Source: Alphaproteobacteria bacterium
Lineage (GTDB): Bacteria; Pseudomonadota; Alphaproteobacteria; Bin95
Direction of reading: 5' to 3'
Assembly: GCA_963665325.3 (NCBI GenBank)
Contig: OZ224045.1
Coordinates: 1-64,000 of the forward strand
DNA length: 64,000 bases
The translations under genes and the position numbers were made by a program. Each line of letters opens with the position of its first letter. The stretch's first letter is position 1. The notes under the pieces are model-generated. The model was not told the origin of the DNA. It saw only the letters and a program-made list of their open reading frames with translations, and ran no database searches. Below are positions 4,462 through 51,177 of the stretch, piece after piece.

Positions 4462-5271
4462 CTACCGGAATCGGCGCATGAGCGGAGTAAATCCGGCAAG
4501 AAGCAAATCGAACCTTCCGAGGCGGACCCGTTCCGCCAGCGGGTCCAGGCGGCGCAATTTCCGCGCCAGGCGGCGGCCCGTGGCGACGGTCATGGCCGCC
4601 TGCGCGGCCAGGCCGCGATGACGAATCCGGCCAGGCAAGCCCGCGGCGATGGCCAGCATGTCGTCGACGCGGTCGAGGCCTGCGTCCAATGCCGCGCGCA
4701 GTGCCGGAGCAGTGCGGCGCTCCGCCAGCAGGTTGCGGTCGGGCAACAGGGCGGCCGGAATGTAAGCGCGGTCGAGTCGGCGATAGTCCTCTCCGCAATT
4801 CCGCAGAATGCCCAGAACCTGGTGGGCGGTGCACAGAGCGTCTGCCGGCCGCCTGGCCTCGTCCATCTCATCGTGCAGCGCCAGCAGGAACCGCCCGGCC
4901 GGCACGGCGGAAAAGCTGCAATAGAGGATGAGGTCGTTCCAGCTCTCGTAGGTTTTCCCCCGGGCATCCTGACGGAACGCATCGAGCAACATGAGAGCCG
5001 GCTCGACAAGGGCGGGAGTTCCGGTGAGCGCTTCATGCAGGGCTGAGGCTTCCGGCGGGCATGTCCCGTTTCGCAGGCCGTTCCCGAGCGCGTCAAGCCG
5101 GGCGAGCTTTTCCTCCGGGTCGATCTCGGGATCGTCGGCAATGTCGTCCGCATGTCGGGCGAAGCGGTAGAAGGCCAGGACGGGCGCCCGGCTCGCGGCG
5201 GGCAAATGGCGGGAAAGGACCGGAAAATTCTCGGCCTTCGGGGTCTTGCCGGGACGCGGCGGGGCGCTCAT
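4462..5271 (-). CDS. hpnC: HpnC-like squalene/phytoene synthase family protein
   Basis: ENFPVLS, FYRFARHADDIADD, LLDAFRQD, YCSFSAVPAGRFLL. The second Asp-rich motif is degenerate (GILRNCGEDY). Confidence 0.75.
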   Translation of the reverse strand: MSAPPRPGKTPKAENFPVLSRHLPAASRAPVLAFYRFARHADDIADDPEIDPEEKLARLDALGNGLRNGTCPPEASALHEALTGTPALVEPALMLLDAFRQDARGKTYESWNDLILYCSFSAVPAGRFLLALHDEMDEARRPADALCTAHQVLGILRNCGEDYRRLDRAYIPAALLPDRNLLAERRTAPALRAALDAGLDRVDDMLAIAAGLPGRIRHRGLAAQAAMTVATGRRLARKLRRLDPLAERVRLGRFDLLLAGFTPLMRRFR

Positions 5272-5323
5272 CGTCCCTCCTCTGGACTGCGGGCTGTCTT
5301 TCCTGTCCCGAAGATATTGCGCC

Positions 5324-6034
5324 ATGGCCGAGCAAAGCAACGACGCAGCCTATTGCAAGGACCGGGTTATCCGGTTCGATGCGGACCGGGCAGCCGTCAT
5401 CGCCTTCCAGCCCGCACGGGCCAGGCCAGCCCTCTACGCGCTGCACGCCTTCAACCTGGAGGTAGCGCATCTGCGGGAGACCGTGGGCGAGCCGATGCTG
5501 GGAGCCGTGCGGCTCCAATGGTGGCGCGATGCACTGGGCGAGGCCGCTTCGGGGCGGGAACGCCGCCACGCCGTGGTGCAACCGCTCGCGGCTGCCATGC
5601 GCGAGCACGGCCTGCCGGCTGACCGTTTCCGACGCCTTCTCGACGCACGGGAAATGGACCTGGACGCTTCGCCGCCCACCGACCTGCCGGCCTATGCGCG
5701 GGAAACGGGCGGGACGCTGGCAGCGCTTGCGGGACAGGTTGTGAGCGGAGAGGCCGGCAGCGAAGACATCGGCACAGCCTGGGCGCTGGTCGGCTGGCTG
5801 CGCGCCGCCGCATTCTTCCACCGGACATTGCCGGAGGGCGCCGAGCCGCGCGCGATCGCACAGGAGGCCGCGGCCCTGCTGGCGCCCGCCGCAGACGGCT
5901 ACGGTCGCGCGCTCGCGGCGCTGACGCGCGCCTATATCCGAAAACTCGAGCGACTGGACTACGATCTGTCCGATTCGCGCGCGGCCGAGCCATTGCGGTT
6001 CAGGGGATGGCGGATCGTCCTTGGGAGGGGCTGA
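5324..6034 (+). CDS. Squalene/phytoene synthase-like protein (NDUFAF6-type, no DDxxD)
   Basis: ALYALHAFNLEVAHLRETVGEPMLGAVRLQWWRDAL, LLDAREMDL. Confidence 0.8.
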   Translation: MAEQSNDAAYCKDRVIRFDADRAAVIAFQPARARPALYALHAFNLEVAHLRETVGEPMLGAVRLQWWRDALGEAASGRERRHAVVQPLAAAMREHGLPADRFRRLLDAREMDLDASPPTDLPAYARETGGTLAALAGQVVSGEAGSEDIGTAWALVGWLRAAAFFHRTLPEGAEPRAIAQEAAALLAPAADGYGRALAALTRAYIRKLERLDYDLSDSRAAEPLRFRGWRIVLGRG

Positions 6035-6037
6035 ATC

Positions 6038-7210
6038 ATGGCGCAGGCAGGCCAGATCGAATTTTCGCGAATGCAGAGGGTCGTGTGGGGCCGGCCCGCC
6101 TCGGAAGTTGTTGCGGAAGAGGCTAGGCGACTCGGGGCGGAGCGCGTCTTCCTCATCGTGAGCCGGACGCTGAACCGCGAGAGCGATGTCGTCTCGGAAA
6201 TCGGCAGGGGGCTCGGGAACCGTGTCGCCGGGCTGTTCGAGGGCATTCCGGCCCATGTCCACCGCGAAACGGTGATCGCCGCGGCGCGCGATGCCCGCGC
6301 TGCGAAGGCCGACCTGATCGTCACGGTCGGCGGCAGTTCGGCCTCCGGCGTCGGCAAGATGGCGCGGCTGGCGCTGGCGCACGGTCTTGAAACCGTGGAC
6401 GACATGGAGCCGTTCCGCACCGTCGTTCAGCCCGACGGCACAAGAACGAAGCCGGAGTTCCGGGGGCCGGAAATCGGCCAGGTCGCCGTGCCGACGACGC
6501 TCTCGGGCGGCGAGTACTACCACTACCAGGGCAGCACCGACACGCGCATCCCGGAAAAGCAGGGCTACGAGCACCCCGACATGATCCCGACCTCGGTGGT
6601 GCTCGATCCCTGGGCCGTACTTCACACGCCGGAATGGCTGTGGTTCTCGACCGGGATCCGGGCTGTCGATCACGCGGTCGAAGGGCTCTGCGCGCCCGGA
6701 GCCAATGCCTATACCGACGCCATGAATCTCCAGGCCCTGAAGCTGCTTTCCCGATCGCTGGCGGCGTCGAAAGCGGCGCCCGGCGATGTGGATGCGCGGC
6801 TCGAAAGCCAACTCGGCGCCTGGATGTCCATGGCAGGTGTCACGGCAGGGGTGCGGGTCGGGGCCAGCCACGGAATCGGCCATGTCCTCGGCGGCGCCTG
6901 CGACGTGCCGCACGGTTATACCTCCTGCGTCATGCTCGCCCCGGTGCTGCGCTGGAACCGGCAGGCGGGAGGGGAGCGCCAGCAGGTCGTGTCCGAGGCG
7001 ATGGGGCAGCCGGACCGCCCCGCAGCCGATCTGGTGGCCGATCTGGTTGCCCGCCTGGGCCTGCCGACGCGGCTCGGCGATGTCGGCGTCGGGCCGGACC
7101 GCTTTCCGGAAATCGCCGAACAGGCGATGCGCGAGCCGTTCGTCCTCGCCAATCCTCGTCCGGTGCGCAGCATCGGGGATGTCTTCGAAATCCTCGAGAG
7201 CGCGCTGTAG
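6038..7210 (+). CDS. Iron-containing alcohol dehydrogenase / maleylacetate reductase family
   Basis: VGGSS, VPTTLSGGE, GIRAVDHAVEG, SHGIGHVLGG, VPHGYTSC metal-binding motifs. Confidence 0.9.
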   Translation: MAQAGQIEFSRMQRVVWGRPASEVVAEEARRLGAERVFLIVSRTLNRESDVVSEIGRGLGNRVAGLFEGIPAHVHRETVIAAARDARAAKADLIVTVGGSSASGVGKMARLALAHGLETVDDMEPFRTVVQPDGTRTKPEFRGPEIGQVAVPTTLSGGEYYHYQGSTDTRIPEKQGYEHPDMIPTSVVLDPWAVLHTPEWLWFSTGIRAVDHAVEGLCAPGANAYTDAMNLQALKLLSRSLAASKAAPGDVDARLESQLGAWMSMAGVTAGVRVGASHGIGHVLGGACDVPHGYTSCVMLAPVLRWNRQAGGERQQVVSEAMGQPDRPAADLVADLVARLGLPTRLGDVGVGPDRFPEIAEQAMREPFVLANPRPVRSIGDVFEILESAL

Positions 7211-7293
7211 CGGCGTTTTCGAGTCCCGGGACTGGCGGGGCAGGGGCTTGCTGTCTATATTGCGGGGCACTGGGTGGAGGAGGGCATTAAACG

Positions 7294-8316
7294 ATGGACG
7301 GCGGCCCCTGGGGCGGTGCAGCGCCGATTATCGACCCGTTCGGGCGTGCGATCACCTATCTGCGCGTCTCGGTGACCGACCGGTGCGACTTCCGCTGCGT
7401 CTATTGCATGTCGGAGCACATGACGTTCCTGCCTAAGCGGGACCTGCTGACGCTCGAGGAACTCGACCGGCTGTGCAGCGCCTTCGTGCGCATGGGCGTG
7501 CGCAAGCTGCGTCTCACCGGCGGCGAGCCGCTGATGCGGCGCAATGTCATGCAGCTCATCCAGTCGCTCGGGCGTCATCTCGACGGGGATGGGCTGGAAG
7601 AGCTCACACTGACCACGAATGGCAGCCAGCTCGGGCGCTTCTCCGAAGGTCTCTTCGAAGCCGGCGTCCGCCGGGTGAATGTCTCGCTCGACACGCTGGA
7701 CCCGGCGAAGTTCAAGGAAATCACCCGTTGGGGGCGGTTCGAGCAGGTCATGGCCGGGCTGGATGCGGCGCAGGCCGCCGGGTTGGCCGTGAAGATCAAC
7801 ATGGTCGCGCTGCGCGGCGTCAACGACGACGAATTCGACGCCATGATCGCCTGGTGCGGCGAGCGCGGGTTCGATCTCGTCGTCATCGAGGTGATGCCGA
7901 TGGGGGATATCGGCGAAGACCGCCTCGACCAGTATATGCCGCTCTCCATGGTGCGCGCGAAGATCGAGCGCAACTGGACGCTGGCGGAAACCGACTACAG
8001 CACGGGCGGCCCGGCGCGATACGCCGTGATCGAGGAAACCGGGCAGCGGATCGGCTTCATCACGCCGCTTACGCATAACTTCTGCGAAAGCTGCAACCGG
8101 GTGCGGCTGACCTGCACCGGCACGCTCTATATGTGCCTCGGCCAGGAAGACGCGGCCGATCTTCGTGCGCCGCTCAGGGCCGATGCCGGCGACACCTTGC
8201 TGGAACAGGCCGTGCACGAGGCGATCTCGCGCAAGCCCAAGGGCCACGATTTCGTCATCGACCGGCGGCGAGGCGCGATCTCGGTGCCGCGCCATATGAG
8301 CGTGACCGGCGGCTGA
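7294..8316 (+). CDS. moaA: GTP 3',8-cyclase MoaA
   Basis: [18 protein letters not shown] radical-SAM motif, [15 protein letters not shown]-terminal MSVTGG. Confidence 0.97.
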
Positions 8317-45932: not shown

Positions 45933-46151
45933 ACGTAGGCGCATGACCTGACAATGTGGAGCGCGTGCGGCATGAGCCGCATTGTGGCGCTATTCGGGAT
46001 TTCGATGGGCGAAACCGGCGGCCGGGCCGGACAGGAGAGGTGCGCGCGCCGGTCGCGGAAGAACCGACCGAGTTGCCGTAACTCCGGGTCGGGTCCGCGC
46101 GTTTGACCCGTTCGAAATGACCCGCCGGGCGGTGCGGCCGGGGGAGGAACC

Positions 46152-46586
46152 ATGACGGATTTGCTGGCGGAGCGGAGCCGGGGGCGGGCGTTCGGCGAGG
46201 ACCTCCGCCGCCGGGCGGTTTCGGCGGTGTTGGACGATGGGATGACCAAGGCGGCCGCGGGCCGGCGGTTCGGGGTCCATCCCCAAAGCATCGCCCGGTG
46301 GGTCAAGCGCTACCGGGAACGCGGCGACCTGCGGCCGGACCCAAGGGGCGGCGACCTCCAGTCCTGGCGGATCGAAGCGGAGCGGGGGCGAATCGGCCGC
46401 CTTCTGGAGAGGCGGCCGAGACTCACCATCCGCGCCCTCCGCGATGCGCTGGCCGAGGAGGGCGCCGTGTTCGGGTCCGCCACGGTGCAGCGCTTCCTGA
46501 AACGCCACGGCCTGGAACGCGACCGCCGCCTCGCCCGCCTCGGCACCCGGTACGGCGCAAAACGCCCGTCTGCCGGGCGCGGGTGA
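46152..46586 (+). CDS. Stand-alone IS630-transposase-type HTH protein (no DDE domain)
   Basis: RAFGEDLRRRAVSAV...AAGRRFGVHPQSIARWVKRYRERGDLRP...PRLTIRALRDALAEEG...SATVQRFLKRHGL, the IS630 N-terminal double HTH. RBS GGAGG. No catalytic ORF recognised downstream. Confidence 0.8.
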   Translation: MTDLLAERSRGRAFGEDLRRRAVSAVLDDGMTKAAAGRRFGVHPQSIARWVKRYRERGDLRPDPRGGDLQSWRIEAERGRIGRLLERRPRLTIRALRDALAEEGAVFGSATVQRFLKRHGLERDRRLARLGTRYGAKRPSAGRG

Positions 46587-46678: not shown

Positions 46679-46956
46679 GGCCCGGGGAAGAATTACGCCC
46701 AATTCCCGGACCGGCACTGCGGACGCCGCGTTGCTCTCGGGGATTGAGACGATGGAAATTTGGATCACGCCGGCGCCAGTATTTGCGTTGGCTGCATTGC
46801 AACTGCACCAGCGCAAGTGCTTTCCGGCAGGCTCGTCATGGACAAACACAAATTAAGACGGTAACGACTTGAAGGTTTGGCCATCACCGTCCTGCAACCG
46901 CTAACGCTCCGACACGCCGAGCACTTTAAACTACCCAGACCTAAAGTTAAGTGTAG

Positions 46957-49162
46957 CTAGTTGATCGCTATCCTTGCATCAAACGTGCGAAGTTCTATCA
47001 TTGGATTTCCCAAACCAGTAATTGCCATTTCCAAATGTTTGTCGATTTGACGAACAACAATTATACCTCTCACCTCCTCACTAGGCTCATTTGCCAACTC
47101 CGACCTGACAAATCCCATATACCGCAACGTTTGCCTAACCACCCGATCAGATGCCCTCCCTTTCTTCAACTCGACTACTACGTATTTTCCATTCTTGTCC
47201 TTGCACAACAGATCCATTCTTCCAACTACTGTGGAAAATTGTCGCTCAACTAACCTCAACCCTTCCTCCAACTGAGATACATTCTTTTCCAAGTAATCTT
47301 CAAGAATCTTCTCCTTAATTTGCACCTCATCAAATAGCTCGTCATTTCCCATTTCAAACAAATTCCATTGTCGTGATCCGACCTTACTGACGTCTATATA
47401 ATAATCGATAGCTTCTTCTTTAGTTGGAAATCTATCGATCTCACCGTAATACGCGAACCAATCCTTTGGATTGTCAAACTCAATAAACACCGCCTTAGAC
47501 TGAAACTCTCTGACTAACCGTTCGACCTCAAATCTCCTCGACAACTTAAGGCGCGCCGCCTCATGTGGCGCCTTGGCTTCAGAAAAATACCGAGCAAACG
47601 TCAAGAAATTGATTGCGTAGCTACGATTCAGCTTTATCGTATTGACTAGGGTCTGTACTCGATTAGGGGATTCCGACAGAGTCTGGAATGTGATTCAAGT
47701 TTCCAAACGATATGGAGGTTTGAATGGCGCGGACGCTGTTTTGGTTGAGCGAGGAGGAATGGACTCGGATCGAACCTTGGCTTCCTCATGGTCGTCGCGG
47801 CGCACACCGGGTTGATGACCGCCGGGTGATCTCTGGGATTGTCCACATGTTGAAGACCGGAGCGCGCTGGCGGGATTGTCCGGCGGAGTATGGCCCCTAT
47901 ACGACGATCTACAATCGGTTCAACCGGTGGAGCAAACAGGGTGTGTGGGAGGATGTGTTCTACGCCCTGTCGGGCTCAAGTGGCGTGATCAGCACGACCG
48001 CTGTCGATTCCACCCACGTAAAGGCTCACCGTTCGGCTGCCGGCGCAAAAGGGGGGAATATGAACACGCGATCGGACGATCTCGCGGCGGACGGACGACC
48101 AAGATTCACGCCCTGACCGATGAGGCCGGCCGGCCCGTGGCATTCACCCTTACGCCCGGCCAGGCCCACGATCTTGCCGGGGTCGGGGCTCTCCTGAAGC
48201 AGGTCCCCGCACCAAAGCGATTGATCGCCGACAGGGCCTACGATGCCCGCAAGTTCCGTAACTGGCTCACCGACCGCGGCTGCGAACCGGTGATACCGCC
48301 CCAGTCCACGCGGAAGACCCGCACTCCTTCGACGCCACAGCCTACAAGCTCCGTAACCGCATCGAGCGTATGTTCTGTCGCCTCAAAGACTTTCGCCGTA
48401 TCGCAACCCGCTACGACAAACGCGCCGATACATTCTTGTCGGCCGTCTTCATCGCCGCAACTCTCGCCTGGTGGGCCAATTGAGTCCCGACCCTAGATCA
48501 GTCCTTCTTCCAGGTAACTGATGCATACCTGCAGCGCTTTCCATAATTGCAATTTGATCTGCCTCGCTCACTTCTCGCCACTTCTGTATTAATTCAAGAA
48601 CGTAATCCAAATCGTCATGTTGCCGACACCGTGACAAAAACAACGTATATTCATCATAACTAAGGTAATGGTCCGTATTGAGTAAAACATCCAACAAAAA
48701 AATATGCGGTCGAATTCTGAACTGATCGAATTTCTGTTGTCTAATTGTTGGATTAGTTATTTGATATCTTTGCACCTGTCGTTCTGCAACTATAGATGGA
48801 TCGTTTGACGACATAAGGCGTTCTCCTGCCGTCGTAATTAGTACTCTTTCCTGATCTTCCACCCAAGCGATACCAAGCGTTGAAAACACTACCTTCCACA
48901 TTCGAGCCATAGCAGTAGAGTCTTGCTCAGTCTGATTGCTTGCTCTTTTCAAGAAAAGGCCACTTTTTTTCAGAGCTGCTAAGTAATCTCCTTGAGCATC
49001 ACTCCATATCCGTCCTTCGAAACTCTTTAGGACCCGAAATGCCTCTAATACTTCATGAGACTTCACCACGCGGCCCTTTGGAAAATACCAATATCCTTCG
49101 TCTTTACCATACCAATCCAAAAAACCTGTCCAGTACTGGAGTCGTCTTGGCAATTGTGTCAT
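46957..49162 (-). pseudogene. IS-interrupted restriction endonuclease: AlwI/Nt.BstNBI-like N-terminal domain plus NucS-like PD-(D/E)xK C-terminal domain (452 aa when rebuilt)
   Basis: Joining 49162-48493 to 47645-46957 gives an uninterrupted frame: ...GRRTDL-VNTIKLNRSYAINFLTFARYF... The C-terminus has EKILEDYL, GRMDLL, VVVELKKG, QTLRY. Confidence 0.85.
47649..48493 (+). mobile_element. IS5-family (IS427-like) element, defective
   Basis: IRs GGGTCTGTACTCGATT / GGGTCGGGACTCAATT, with CTAG at both junctions (TA or CTAG duplication). orfA 47724-48116; -1 slippery AAAAGGGGGG at 48047-48056; extra frameshift near 48318 before RNRIER. Confidence 0.95.
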
Positions 49163-49165
49163 CCA

Positions 49166-50245
49166 TTATTCTCCATTGTTTTTGTCGTCAAATAGGTCGA
49201 GCGGAGTTTGCGATTGACTAGGTATATTCCGACCATAAGTCGTTCTCTTGTGCTTAGCTAATGCCCTATCGACATCTGCTTCGTCACCGAATCGTTTCTC
49301 AGAAGATTCATAGTCCTTTTGGCATTTATATGTAGACAATTCCTCAGACGTGGGATAATTTGGTCGTCCAACTAGCCAGTTTAATCCTTGACCCCAAATG
49401 CAACTGTTAACGCGATTCTTGGCCAGACGATGATATTCGTGAGATAATTCAATTCCAATGCAACGACGCTGAAGCATCTTGGCTACAATTGAAGTTGTGC
49501 CAATTCCATTGAATGGGTCAAGTATCAAGTCTCCATCGTGATCTTCGCTTGCACCGAAGGAATACATTTTTATGAAGCGAGCTGGTAATTTCAATGGAAA
49601 AGGTGCGGGATGATGTAGTTCACGCTTAACATCAGCAGGATACATAAACCAAACTTGTTGAGTCAAATCTAGCCATTCATACTGCTTTAGATGATTTGCA
49701 TTCTTGGTTGCCGTTGACATTTTTCGAGGGAAACCGGGTTTAACGTAAACAGCCATAAACTCAATCGTGTTGTTTTCCAAAATGTTGGGCGGAAACGGGT
49801 AGCTCCCGAACATCATTTTCGAAGTTTGCTTCTGCCAAATATACAAGCTAAATCGATTGTAGTCGGTGTTCGATAAAATCCATTGTTCGGTGTCAGAAAA
49901 AATGTTCTTTATGTGCCTCGGCCTTTGCTTAATTACTTTATTTGGAATCGGCATGATTGGGGTGTTGATTACAAGCTTTCCGTTGGGCCGTAAAGCGCGA
50001 AAACAATCCAACCAAACTGAACCTAACCAAGCGATGTATTCTTCATACGTTTGAGACGATAAGGTGTCGTTTCCTTGGTACTCGACAGCAGTCCAATATG
50101 GAGGTGAAGTGACGACCAAGTCGATGGTTTCATCCTCGATGCGTGATAAGCCTTCCAAAACGTCAGCGTGGAGGAGAGCAATGTTGCCCGTAGTGTCGAG
50201 GTCCGCGTTGAGTGAGGAGAGGTTCATTGAATGGAAGTGATGCAC
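49166..50245 (-). CDS. Beta-class N4/N6 DNA methyltransferase, probably m4C
   Basis: LVVTSPPY catalytic motif before HPAPFP and ILDPFNGIGTT (SAM binding), CIGIEL. Start may be the ATG at 50227. Stop is 3 nt before the endonuclease ATG. Confidence 0.93.
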   Translation of the reverse strand: MHHFHSMNLSSLNADLDTTGNIALLHADVLEGLSRIEDETIDLVVTSPPYWTAVEYQGNDTLSSQTYEEYIAWLGSVWLDCFRALRPNGKLVINTPIMPIPNKVIKQRPRHIKNIFSDTEQWILSNTDYNRFSLYIWQKQTSKMMFGSYPFPPNILENNTIEFMAVYVKPGFPRKMSTATKNANHLKQYEWLDLTQQVWFMYPADVKRELHHPAPFPLKLPARFIKMYSFGASEDHDGDLILDPFNGIGTTSIVAKMLQRRCIGIELSHEYHRLAKNRVNSCIWGQGLNWLVGRPNYPTSEELSTYKCQKDYESSEKRFGDEADVDRALAKHKRTTYGRNIPSQSQTPLDLFDDKNNGE

Positions 50246-50296
50246 CGGTAGAGAAAGTAACCCTGTGACATGTTGAAGTATGAAGGCCGTGTACTA

Positions 50297-51133
50297 GGTC
50301 GTGTACCCATAAGGGGTTTCGTGATTTGCGAAGATGTGATTCAAGCTCCCAACCTCAGGGAGCTTGGAGATGGGCCGCTACGATCTGACGGACTTCGAAT
50401 GGCGTGTGATCGAGCCGCTGCTGCCGAACAAGCCCCGCGGCGTCCCGCGGGTGGACGACCGCCGAGTGTTGAACGGCATTCTGTGGGTGCTTCGCACGGG
50501 GGCACCGTGGCGTGACCTCCCGGAGCGCTACGGGCCTTATACGACCTGCTACAACCGGTTCAACCGCTGGCGCAAGAAGGGCGTCTGGGATCAGTTGATG
50601 GATGCGGTGGTGGAGGCTTACGACGGCAATGTGCAGATGATCGACAGTTCGAGCGTCCGGGTTCACCAGCACGCAGCGGGTGCAAAAAGGGGGGTCCGGA
50701 TCGTTGCATGGGTCGTTCCCGCGGTGGACTGACCACGAAGATCCACGCCGTGGCGGACGTTACCGGTCTGCCGATCCGCTACGACCTCAGCCCCGGCCAG
50801 GCACACGACAGTACGCCCGCCGGCGCCATGCTGGCGCACCTGCCGCCCGACAGTTTCCTCATCGCCGACAAGGCCTATGACGCCAAATGGATCCGTGACC
50901 TGATCGAGCAACGCGATGCCGTCGCGATCATCCCCGACCGAGAAGGCGCGAAGACCAGGCACACCTTCAGCAAACCGTTGTATCGATTGCGAAATCGCAT
51001 CGAACGCGCCTTCAACAAGCTCAAGCAGTTCCGCCGCATCGCCACCCGCTACGAAAAGCTCGCGGCCAACTTCCTGGCCATGATCAAGATCGCTACCATC
51101 AGACTCTGGCTGCGCGCTTATGAGTCCACGACC
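50297..51133 (+). mobile_element. IS5-family (IS427-like) element, apparently intact
   Basis: IRs GGTCGTGTACCCATAAG / GGTCGTGGACTCATAAG, with CTAG at both junctions. orfA 50370-50732; -1 slippery AAAAAGGGGGG at 50684-50694; orfB to 51136 with ADKAYD and RNRIERAFNKLKQFRRIATRYEK. Confidence 0.96.
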
Positions 51134-51177
51134 TAGACAGGTAATGCTAGTCGTCTGTCAAGGCGGGAAATTTTCAA

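Follow-up and report, generated by a model that had tools for sequence, protein, structure and literature searches.

Three minus-strand open reading frames (ORFs), of 359 codons (49166-50245), 237 codons (48449-49162) and 215 codons (46957-47604), lie close together in the first 64,000 nucleotides of contig OZ224045.1 (NCBI GenBank assembly GCA_963665325.3, Alphaproteobacteria bacterium), a stretch that is called the window hereafter. The longest encodes a DNA methyltransferase and a mobile element lies between the two shorter ones, which raises the question of whether these were once a single gene and, if so, what enzyme that gene provided beside the methyltransferase. With a probability of about 0.8, we regard the region as what is left of a Type II restriction-modification (R-M) cassette of two genes that arrived by horizontal transfer, and whose modular nuclease, combining a DNA recognition domain (the reader) with a NucS-type cleavage domain, presumably served as the restriction enzyme until an insertion sequence (IS) inactivated it.

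The original prediction had read ORFs 48449-49162 and 46957-47604 as the two parts of one gene with a restored frame of 1359 nt and 452 amino acids, and both statements hold at the coordinates given. Scripted removal of 47650-48496, namely the IS and one copy of CTAG, leaves 452 codons, or 1359 nt including the stop codon, and the restored ATG (49160-49162) stands 3 nt past the methyltransferase stop codon, again as claimed. The interrupting DNA, designated IS-A, consists of the 843 bp that separate CTAG 47646-47649 from CTAG 48493-48496, and codes in two overlapping frames for the DUF4096 (6e-27) and DDE_Tnp_1 (8.5e-15) parts of a transposase, as identified with Pfam. Seven copies are present in the 5.58-Mb genome, this one and six more, with 98-100% identity and a common sequence that stops at the CTAGs. 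By its DDE transposase with a DUF4096 N-terminal part, its terminal inverted repeats, which are imperfect, and its multiple exact-ended copies, IS-A is an IS5-family insertion sequence. It may belong to an IS427/IS1031-like subgroup.

Among longer proteins, the N-terminal half of the nuclease (N-half) retrieved 21 intact proteins of 427-453 amino acids with 46-57% identity; PF01939 (NucS_C), the domain of the C-terminal half (C-half), is present in all 21 of them and PF09491 (RE_AlwI) in 13. Because every one of these intact matches carries the C-half domain, the agreement of the restored frame with them lies far beyond chance. The two halves also tile onto intact homologues of 446-453 amino acids, the end of the N-half and the start of the C-half falling in adjacent columns. 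The idea that the two ORFs are unrelated fragments and their common frame a coincidence has nothing in its favour except that gene callers list such fragments as proteins, the 237-residue one being recorded with its IS-derived tail as a predicted protein (P0022). It is refuted by the tiling onto the 21 intact proteins without overlap or gap and by the nature of the interrupting DNA, a multicopy element with exact ends, and its probability is practically nil. Since the IS copies are so nearly identical and neither half of the gene contains any further stop codon or frameshift, the knock-out by IS-A is evidently recent. The nuclease copy in this genome is dead, and no second copy of the family gene was found in the genome.

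The enzyme that was lost combines two modules. Its N-half matches the Pfam family RE_AlwI at 5.6e-9 (35.9 bits against a cut-off of 23.1) over profile positions 3-121 of 441, and no match in the window protein was found for the rest of the profile, which comprises the linker and the C-terminal catalytic part. A similar boundary is seen in the homologues that carry NucS_C, where the RE_AlwI match ends mostly at profile positions of about 113-130 and at most at 268. The C-half matches NucS_C at 9e-18, and the NCBIfam NucS equivalogs are hit far under their cut-offs and by their C-terminal parts only (NF003270, 63 bits against 216; NF002876, 50 bits against 252). Compared with solved structures, the single intact homologue P0002 retrieves EndoMS (3.6e-5), NucS and N.BspD6I (1e-4), and a 75-member family profile matches N.BspD6I at 1.3e-23 (profile positions 21-325, chain residues 11-339) and NucS at 7.8e-15.

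An AlphaFold model of P0002, which is 56-57% identical to the window protein, was built on the family alignment with a predicted local confidence (pLDDT) of 91.5 and a predicted template-modelling score (pTM) of 0.78. Its residues 21-446 superimpose on Nt.BspD6I with a Z-score of 23.8 over 372 aligned residues, at a root-mean-square deviation (rmsd) of 21 that reflects a different orientation of the domains. Residues 13-294 match the BpuJI recognition domain (2vla; Z 17.9, rmsd 3.4, 251 of 280 residues aligned), and the C-terminal part matches EndoMS (5gke; Z 16.5, rmsd 2.4, 116 aligned, model 323-449) and NucS (2vld; Z 16.4, rmsd 1.7, 108 aligned, model 331-447). FokI (2fok) is a more remote match (Z 9.1, rmsd 20.1, 297 aligned, model 26-445), with a whole-chain Foldseek E-value of 4.6e-6. 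As modelled, the nuclease has a two-subdomain reader of the BspD6I/BpuJI/FokI type at residues of about 13-293, a short helical linker and a NucS/EndoMS-type PD-(D/E)XK domain at residues 334-452. Because the reader has this extent and the insertion sits at codon 222/223, IS-A interrupts the recognition domain itself and not the boundary between domains. The original prediction had placed in the N-half a parallel to the recognition domain of AlwI, MlyI and Nt.BstNBI, and in the C-half a NucS-type domain instead of the usual AlwI catalytic domain; the above-threshold RE_AlwI and NucS_C matches, the profile match to N.BspD6I and the missing AlwI catalytic part agree with both proposals, except that the recognition domain extends beyond the N-half.

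The cleavage domain has one D-E-K active site per chain. In the numbering of the window protein, the columns that are invariant across 75 homologues include D368, E382, K384, E335, Q395 and Y399, and the window protein retains the triad. It keeps 53 of the 55 columns conserved at 85% or more, the exceptions being a Leu-to-Val change and Arg394. The latter is unique in the family, yet need not be fatal, as EndoMS carries an Arg at the aligned position.

The partner gene encodes, as originally predicted, a single methyltransferase of the beta class with an SPPY motif. It matches PF01555 with 125 bits against a cut-off of 26.7, and its assignment to the beta class follows from the order of its motifs, since motif IV (SPPY, from residue 47) precedes motif I (FxGxG, from residue 245). 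Among solved structures, the putative enzyme TTHA0409 (2zie, 7e-33) comes closest, and the N4-cytosine methyltransferases 8s9m/8s9n (1e-12) are next; SPPY is shared by TTHA0409 and by N4CMT, the rotifer enzyme. A passage of PMC10406627 sets the SPPY of N4CMT against DPPY in CcrM, which acts on adenine. The product is probably N4-methylcytosine (m4C), the SPPY motif alone being no proof of the target base. Neither the best solved relatives, a putative protein and a rotifer enzyme, nor the plasmid matches, which bear only generic names, gave a clue to the target specificity. The coordinates of all these features are collected in the table below.

Table. Features of the cassette and its surroundings, in positions of the window, with the tandem nuclease genes of related loci (in the coordinates of each locus) in the last row.
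Feature	Position	Strand	Details
Low-GC island	46860..50293		only the methyltransferase and nuclease genes and the inserted IS; GC (guanine plus cytosine) 42-49% against 64-73% on both sides
Nuclease gene, 5' part	48497..49162	-	codons 1-222; first recognition subdomain; RE_AlwI 5.6e-9; aligns with homologue residues 1-222
Nuclease gene, 3' part	46957..47649	-	codons 223-452 and stop; second recognition subdomain, linker and nuclease domain; NucS_C 9e-18; aligns with homologue residue 223 to the end
Predicted NucS/EndoMS-type PD-(D/E)XK nuclease domain	46960..47316	-	residues 334-452; from folds matching the P0002 model, family profile and NucS_C
Catalytic triad codons	47164..47214	-	D368 47212-47214, E382 47170-47172, K384 47164-47166
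Arg394 codon AGG	47134..47136	-	Gly in all 75 aligned homologues; directly before the invariant Gln (Q395)
IS5-family element IS-A	47650..48492	+	843 bp; overlapping transposase frames 47724-48116 and 47876-48496
CTAG, left junction, target site	47646..47649		sequence common to the other IS copies runs to these bases
CTAG, right junction, other copy of the target site	48493..48496		from the sequence
Beta-class N4/N6 amino-methyltransferase, frame intact	49166..50245	-	359 amino acids from GTG; likelier start ATG 50225-50227; PF01555 5.4e-36
Catalytic motif IV, SPPY	50096..50107	-	residues 47-50; aligns with SPPY of 2zie and N4CMT 8s9m
S-adenosylmethionine-binding motif I, FxGxG	49499..49513	-	residues 245-249; from the sequence
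Second, different IS5-type element IS-B	50294..51136	+	abuts the 5' side of the methyltransferase gene, 49 bp before its GTG; ORFs 50364-50732 and 50708-51136 encode the transposase
Tandem nuclease paralogs	L002 (Marivita lacus) 4971-7699; L006 4959-7718; L010 4953-7705		also L092, L093, L094, L099, L120, L121, L136, L137 and L023

The pairing of the two genes is a general property of the family. Related loci were taken from one genome per species (L001-L028, with full-length relatives) and from metagenomes (L089-L147), and 87 were scanned; 55 were judgeable, as their nuclease match took in the N-terminus and their upstream sequence measured 1100 bp or more, and the other 32 were not. The hosts of L001-L028 are mostly Alphaproteobacteria, with Zixibacteria, Chloroflexota, Bacteroidota, Planctomycetota, Spirochaetota and Armatimonadota also represented. 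A methyltransferase homologue was found beside the nuclease in all 55 judgeable loci, and in 52 of them it is co-oriented with the nuclease and ends no more than 400 bp ahead of it; the three exceptions have it downstream (L005), downstream on the opposite strand (L106) or upstream past a nuclease remnant (L018). The identity of the methyltransferase homologues in related loci ranges from 34 to 62%. The closest loci, L089 and L090, have nucleases 51-52% and methyltransferases 59-62% identical to those of the window in the same order, and L090 also shares the 3-nt gap between the genes. The search for intact two-domain homologues next to similar methyltransferases, suggested with the original prediction, thus found them to be common. 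Because a methyltransferase homologue adjoins the nuclease at every judgeable locus, the two genes are considered to form a real R-M family, and the cassette is read as methyltransferase followed by a translationally close-coupled nuclease.

An intact pair was also observed at L088 (3011-6333), on the 9.6-kb mobilisable MOBQ plasmid pTK7 of Sphingobium sp. TKS, where it stands directly after a RelE/ParE-HigA toxin-antitoxin pair. RefSeq labels the pTK7 nuclease only as 'endonuclease NucS domain-containing protein'.

An exhaustive HMMER search with the N-half yielded 234 clusters (50% identity) at E-values of 0.001 or less, and the architecture of 92 longer matches of at least 316 amino acids was scanned, one match of 321 amino acids having been overlooked. 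NucS_C follows the reader in 69 of the 92, a classic RE_AlwI architecture is found in two (P0128 and P0132), RNA-polymerase-alpha C-terminal and/or sigma-70 region 4 domains take the place of NucS_C in eight, and 13 have another domain or no match. Since 69 of the 92 scanned relatives carry it, the NucS_C fusion is the dominant context of this reader and no one-off. The locus had been described as domain-shuffled, which is right as far as the fusion of two domains is concerned and misleading as to its frequency, the fusion belonging to a widespread family instead of a single shuffling event. Literature searches, which did not cover REBASE, found no published work on the reader-NucS fusion family; a survey of PD-(D/E)XK nucleases (PMC3424549) treats DUF91 and RE_AlwI as separate groups and mentions no fusion in its passages on them. 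The eight proteins with transcription-related domains (P0070, P0071, P0074, P0081, P0090, P0098, P0140 and P0157) are 580-1057 amino acids long and headed by the BspD6I-like reader, with RNA-polymerase-alpha-C-terminal-domain-like and/or sigma-70 region 4 domains replacing the nuclease.

Part of the family carries two nucleases. Near-full-length paralogs, here called R1 and R2, occur together in 12 of the 55 judgeable loci, in the order methyltransferase, R1, R2 in most of those examined; they are about 30% identical to each other and both have the E-x-K motif. A quick IQ-TREE analysis of 61 rows, from which ORFs shorter than 390 amino acids and P0019 were left out, separates R1 (six rows) from R2 (four rows) by a branch supported at 99%. 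The window protein belongs to a third clade, supported at 100%, whose 21 rows include 20 of the 21 intact N-half matches. The window clade has one nuclease gene and no gene for a second subunit, and all three clades pair with methyltransferases of about 50-60% identity. An R2-type gene stands alone with a methyltransferase at L014, and decay can affect either paralog while its partner stays intact, as it does R2 at L012 (6374-7228) and L015 (6597-7211) and R1 at L018 (4995-5267). Because R2 occurs alone and either gene decays beside an intact one, we favour two enzymes that would work independently and rely on a common methyltransferase over an obligate heterodimer. The tandem could nevertheless be a natural heterodimer, with one strand cut by R1 and the other by R2.

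The local context of the cassette points to foreign DNA. The GC content of the nuclease gene pieces is 43-44%, that of the IS 61% and that of the whole window 66%, and no ortholog was found in 16 same-genus genomes, one of which (G004) has a distant full-length family member. Because of this low GC content of the gene pieces and the island, and because of the lack of an ortholog in the 16 genomes, the cassette is interpreted as strain-specific, horizontally acquired DNA. No intact ortholog displaying the state before insertion was found among 40 relatives searched. The same-genus genomes hold several other NucS_C proteins.

The second element, IS-B, also has copies elsewhere in the genome, which are 97-98% identical and span 50288/50294 to 51135/51137. 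A composite transposon formed by IS-A and IS-B was considered and rejected, as the two match each other only in two short stretches of 69-79% identity. Left of the island, a truncated transposase remnant was noted at 45939-46586, with a helix-turn-helix N-terminal part and an ORF at 46152-46586; the stretch 45939-46550 is about 67-74% identical to several copies elsewhere in the genome. With IS-B on the right and this remnant on the left, the cassette is boxed in by IS debris on both sides. IS-B may have removed or replaced the promoter of the methyltransferase gene. In the 49-bp gap between IS-B and the methyltransferase gene, scanning for promoters revealed no sigma-70-like site, a result that is uninformative given that the count of such sites in the region is not above that of shuffled controls. 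The methyltransferase frame is intact and would make this enzyme a possible orphan.

Similar decay was seen at related loci, where the nuclease is split or truncated beside a long methyltransferase match (L016 4944-6356; L020 4962-6329; also L012, L015 and L018). That the nuclease decays repeatedly while the methyltransferase is kept fits a toxic and easily lost restriction partner.

On the observed split, domains, homology, pairing and recency, a mechanism can be proposed in which we infer restriction activity, cutting mode, m4C chemistry and specificity by analogy with better known enzymes. The reader, acting as a monomer, would recognise a specific site that is probably asymmetric. As is the case for FokI, MlyI and BpuJI, two nuclease domains would then join and cleave both strands there or close by, while host DNA would be shielded by the beta-class SPPY enzyme, which probably forms m4C. 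In this genome, an active IS5-type element has inserted at a CTAG in the recognition domain, with loss of the nuclease and sparing of the methyltransferase frame. Precedents for such a cycle are described in passages of PMC3017599, on monomer binding and dimerisation of the cleavage domains in FokI, MlyI and AlwI, and of PMC1874659, on the monomeric readers that BpuJI carries on a dimeric nuclease core.

Several points weigh against this account of an R-M cassette. The literature searches, with REBASE outside their coverage, returned no enzyme of the family with demonstrated DNA cutting. An asymmetric Type IIS site is hard to reconcile with a lone methyltransferase, except where modification is confined to one strand or the site is quasi-palindromic. 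Arg394, next to the active-site Gln, may mean that the enzyme was attenuated before the insertion and that a repaired copy would be inactive. Finally, with only 49 bp upstream of the methyltransferase gene and no promoter-like site seen in them, its expression is uncertain.

The single methyltransferase also bears on the geometry of cleavage. A protein of the same R-M family could be Type IIP-like, a stable homodimer cutting within a palindromic site with one dimeric methyltransferase acting on both strands, and this is a possible explanation that we consider unlikely. It stays alive because one methyltransferase would suit a palindromic or quasi-palindromic site or the protection of one strand, and one methyltransferase gene per locus is what the 55 judgeable loci have without exception. 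The nearest relatives of the nuclease domain, NucS/EndoMS (DNA complex 5gke), also act as symmetric dimers. Beta-class methyltransferases, for their part, are typically homodimers according to a passage of PMC7544214. However, the readers of Nt.BspD6I, BpuJI and FokI all bind asymmetric sites as monomers, as stated in parts of PMC3017599 and PMC1874659, and the full two-subdomain reader of about 280 residues is big enough for a whole site. Rather doubtful, too, is the more far-reaching proposal of a new modular class, in which a monomeric reader of asymmetric sites, a NucS nuclease and a single m4C methyltransferase would work together, the last acting on one strand or on a hidden quasi-palindrome, and in which the R1/R2 tandem could be a heterodimer. 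If true, strand-specific nickases and a new portable cleavage module could readily be drawn from such a system.

A natural site-specific nickase, whose chains each have one active site and do not dimerise productively, as is true of Nt.BspD6I/Nt.BstNBI as an isolated large subunit, is improbable. The homology of the reader with that of the nickase Nt.BspD6I, the single D-E-K site per chain and the missing second-subunit gene in the window clade would all be expected of such an enzyme. Yet Nt.BspD6I nicks only for want of its small catalytic subunit (in a passage of PMC3017599), and an enzyme limited to nicking would restrict weakly, whereas 55 of 55 loci keep the nuclease tightly paired with a protective methyltransferase; moreover, 12 of these carry two full paralogs, each with the E-x-K motif. 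Very improbable is a nuclease of repair, recombination or modification-dependent (e.g. Type IV-like) function that merely neighbours the methyltransferase. NucS_C does occur in many contexts other than restriction, the same-genus genomes have several further NucS_C proteins, and the RefSeq name is generic; but 52 of the 55 loci, from several phyla, have the methyltransferase gene immediately ahead of the nuclease in the same orientation and close-coupled to it, the two genes move together, either as a minimal island or on a small plasmid, the reader has a homologue in a genuine restriction enzyme, and nuclease decay with methyltransferase retention, here and at L016, L020, L012, L015 and L018, is expected of a toxic partner. 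A modular Type II restriction enzyme therefore remains our preferred reading of the split gene.

Nickases and programmable nucleases are built from enzymes with separable reader and cutter, such as FokI, BstNBI and AlwI. To these, the present family, widespread and apparently unstudied, with its BspD6I-type reader and NucS-type cutter, would contribute a new specificity and perhaps another geometry of cleavage, and it would represent the recruitment into defence of a fold known from mismatch repair, in proteins that RefSeq does not label as restriction enzymes. The genome at hand would illustrate the usual fate of a selfish R-M cassette, its toxic nuclease knocked out by a resident IS, with an intact methyltransferase frame that may still mark the chromosome.

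Set beside known systems, the nuclease shares with Nt.BspD6I/Nt.BstNBI (the large subunit of R.BspD6I, GAGTC 4/6, of the RE_AlwI family with AlwI, MlyI and PleI) a homologous N-terminal reader and a modular design with one active site per chain. It differs in that a NucS-type domain replaces the RE_AlwI linker and catalytic domain, giving a protein of about 450 instead of about 600 amino acids, and in that the window clade is without a small-subunit gene and has a single SPPY beta-class enzyme as partner; MlyI/BstNBI systems, according to the original prediction, rely on an m6A enzyme. With NucS/EndoMS (2vld, 5gke), it shares the C-terminal nuclease (Z 16.4-16.5, 25% identity), with aligned D-E-K and Q..Y motifs; unlike them, it is devoid of the N-terminal dimerisation and mismatch-binding domain, for which it has a BspD6I-like N-terminus, and its genomic context is a methyltransferase gene and not repair. 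The protein is accordingly classified, from its domain content, neither as a full member of RE_AlwI, whose catalytic half is absent, nor as a NucS, whose N-terminal half is absent.

FokI offers the same layout, its reader being N-terminal and its PD-(D/E)XK nuclease, with a single site, C-terminal, but with much weaker similarity, a third reader subdomain and a nuclease of a different subfamily. BpuJI (CCCGT; Sukackaite et al. 2007, PMC1874659) comes closer in size and layout, the parts of that paper on its architecture describing a monomeric two-subdomain reader of about 285 amino acids and a minimal C-terminal PD-(D/E)XK domain with D...E-x-K near residues 350-370. The fold of the BpuJI reader is matched by the P0002 model as given above (Z 17.9), and no sequence match to 2vla was obtained at E-values of 10 or less with the single protein or 1 or less with the profile. 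The nuclease domains are assigned differently, that of BpuJI to archaeal Holliday-junction-resolvase-like folds in a passage of the same paper and the one here to NucS_C. The architecture had been implied to be singular, and the NucS-type module does set it apart, but a FokI-like reader on a minimal PD-(D/E)XK domain has its precedent in BpuJI, which makes it less singular than that. By analogy, the nuclease would work most like BpuJI or FokI. What is known is the modular reader-cutter design; what is new is a repair-type cleavage module within a modular Type II enzyme, of which the copy described here is a decayed example.

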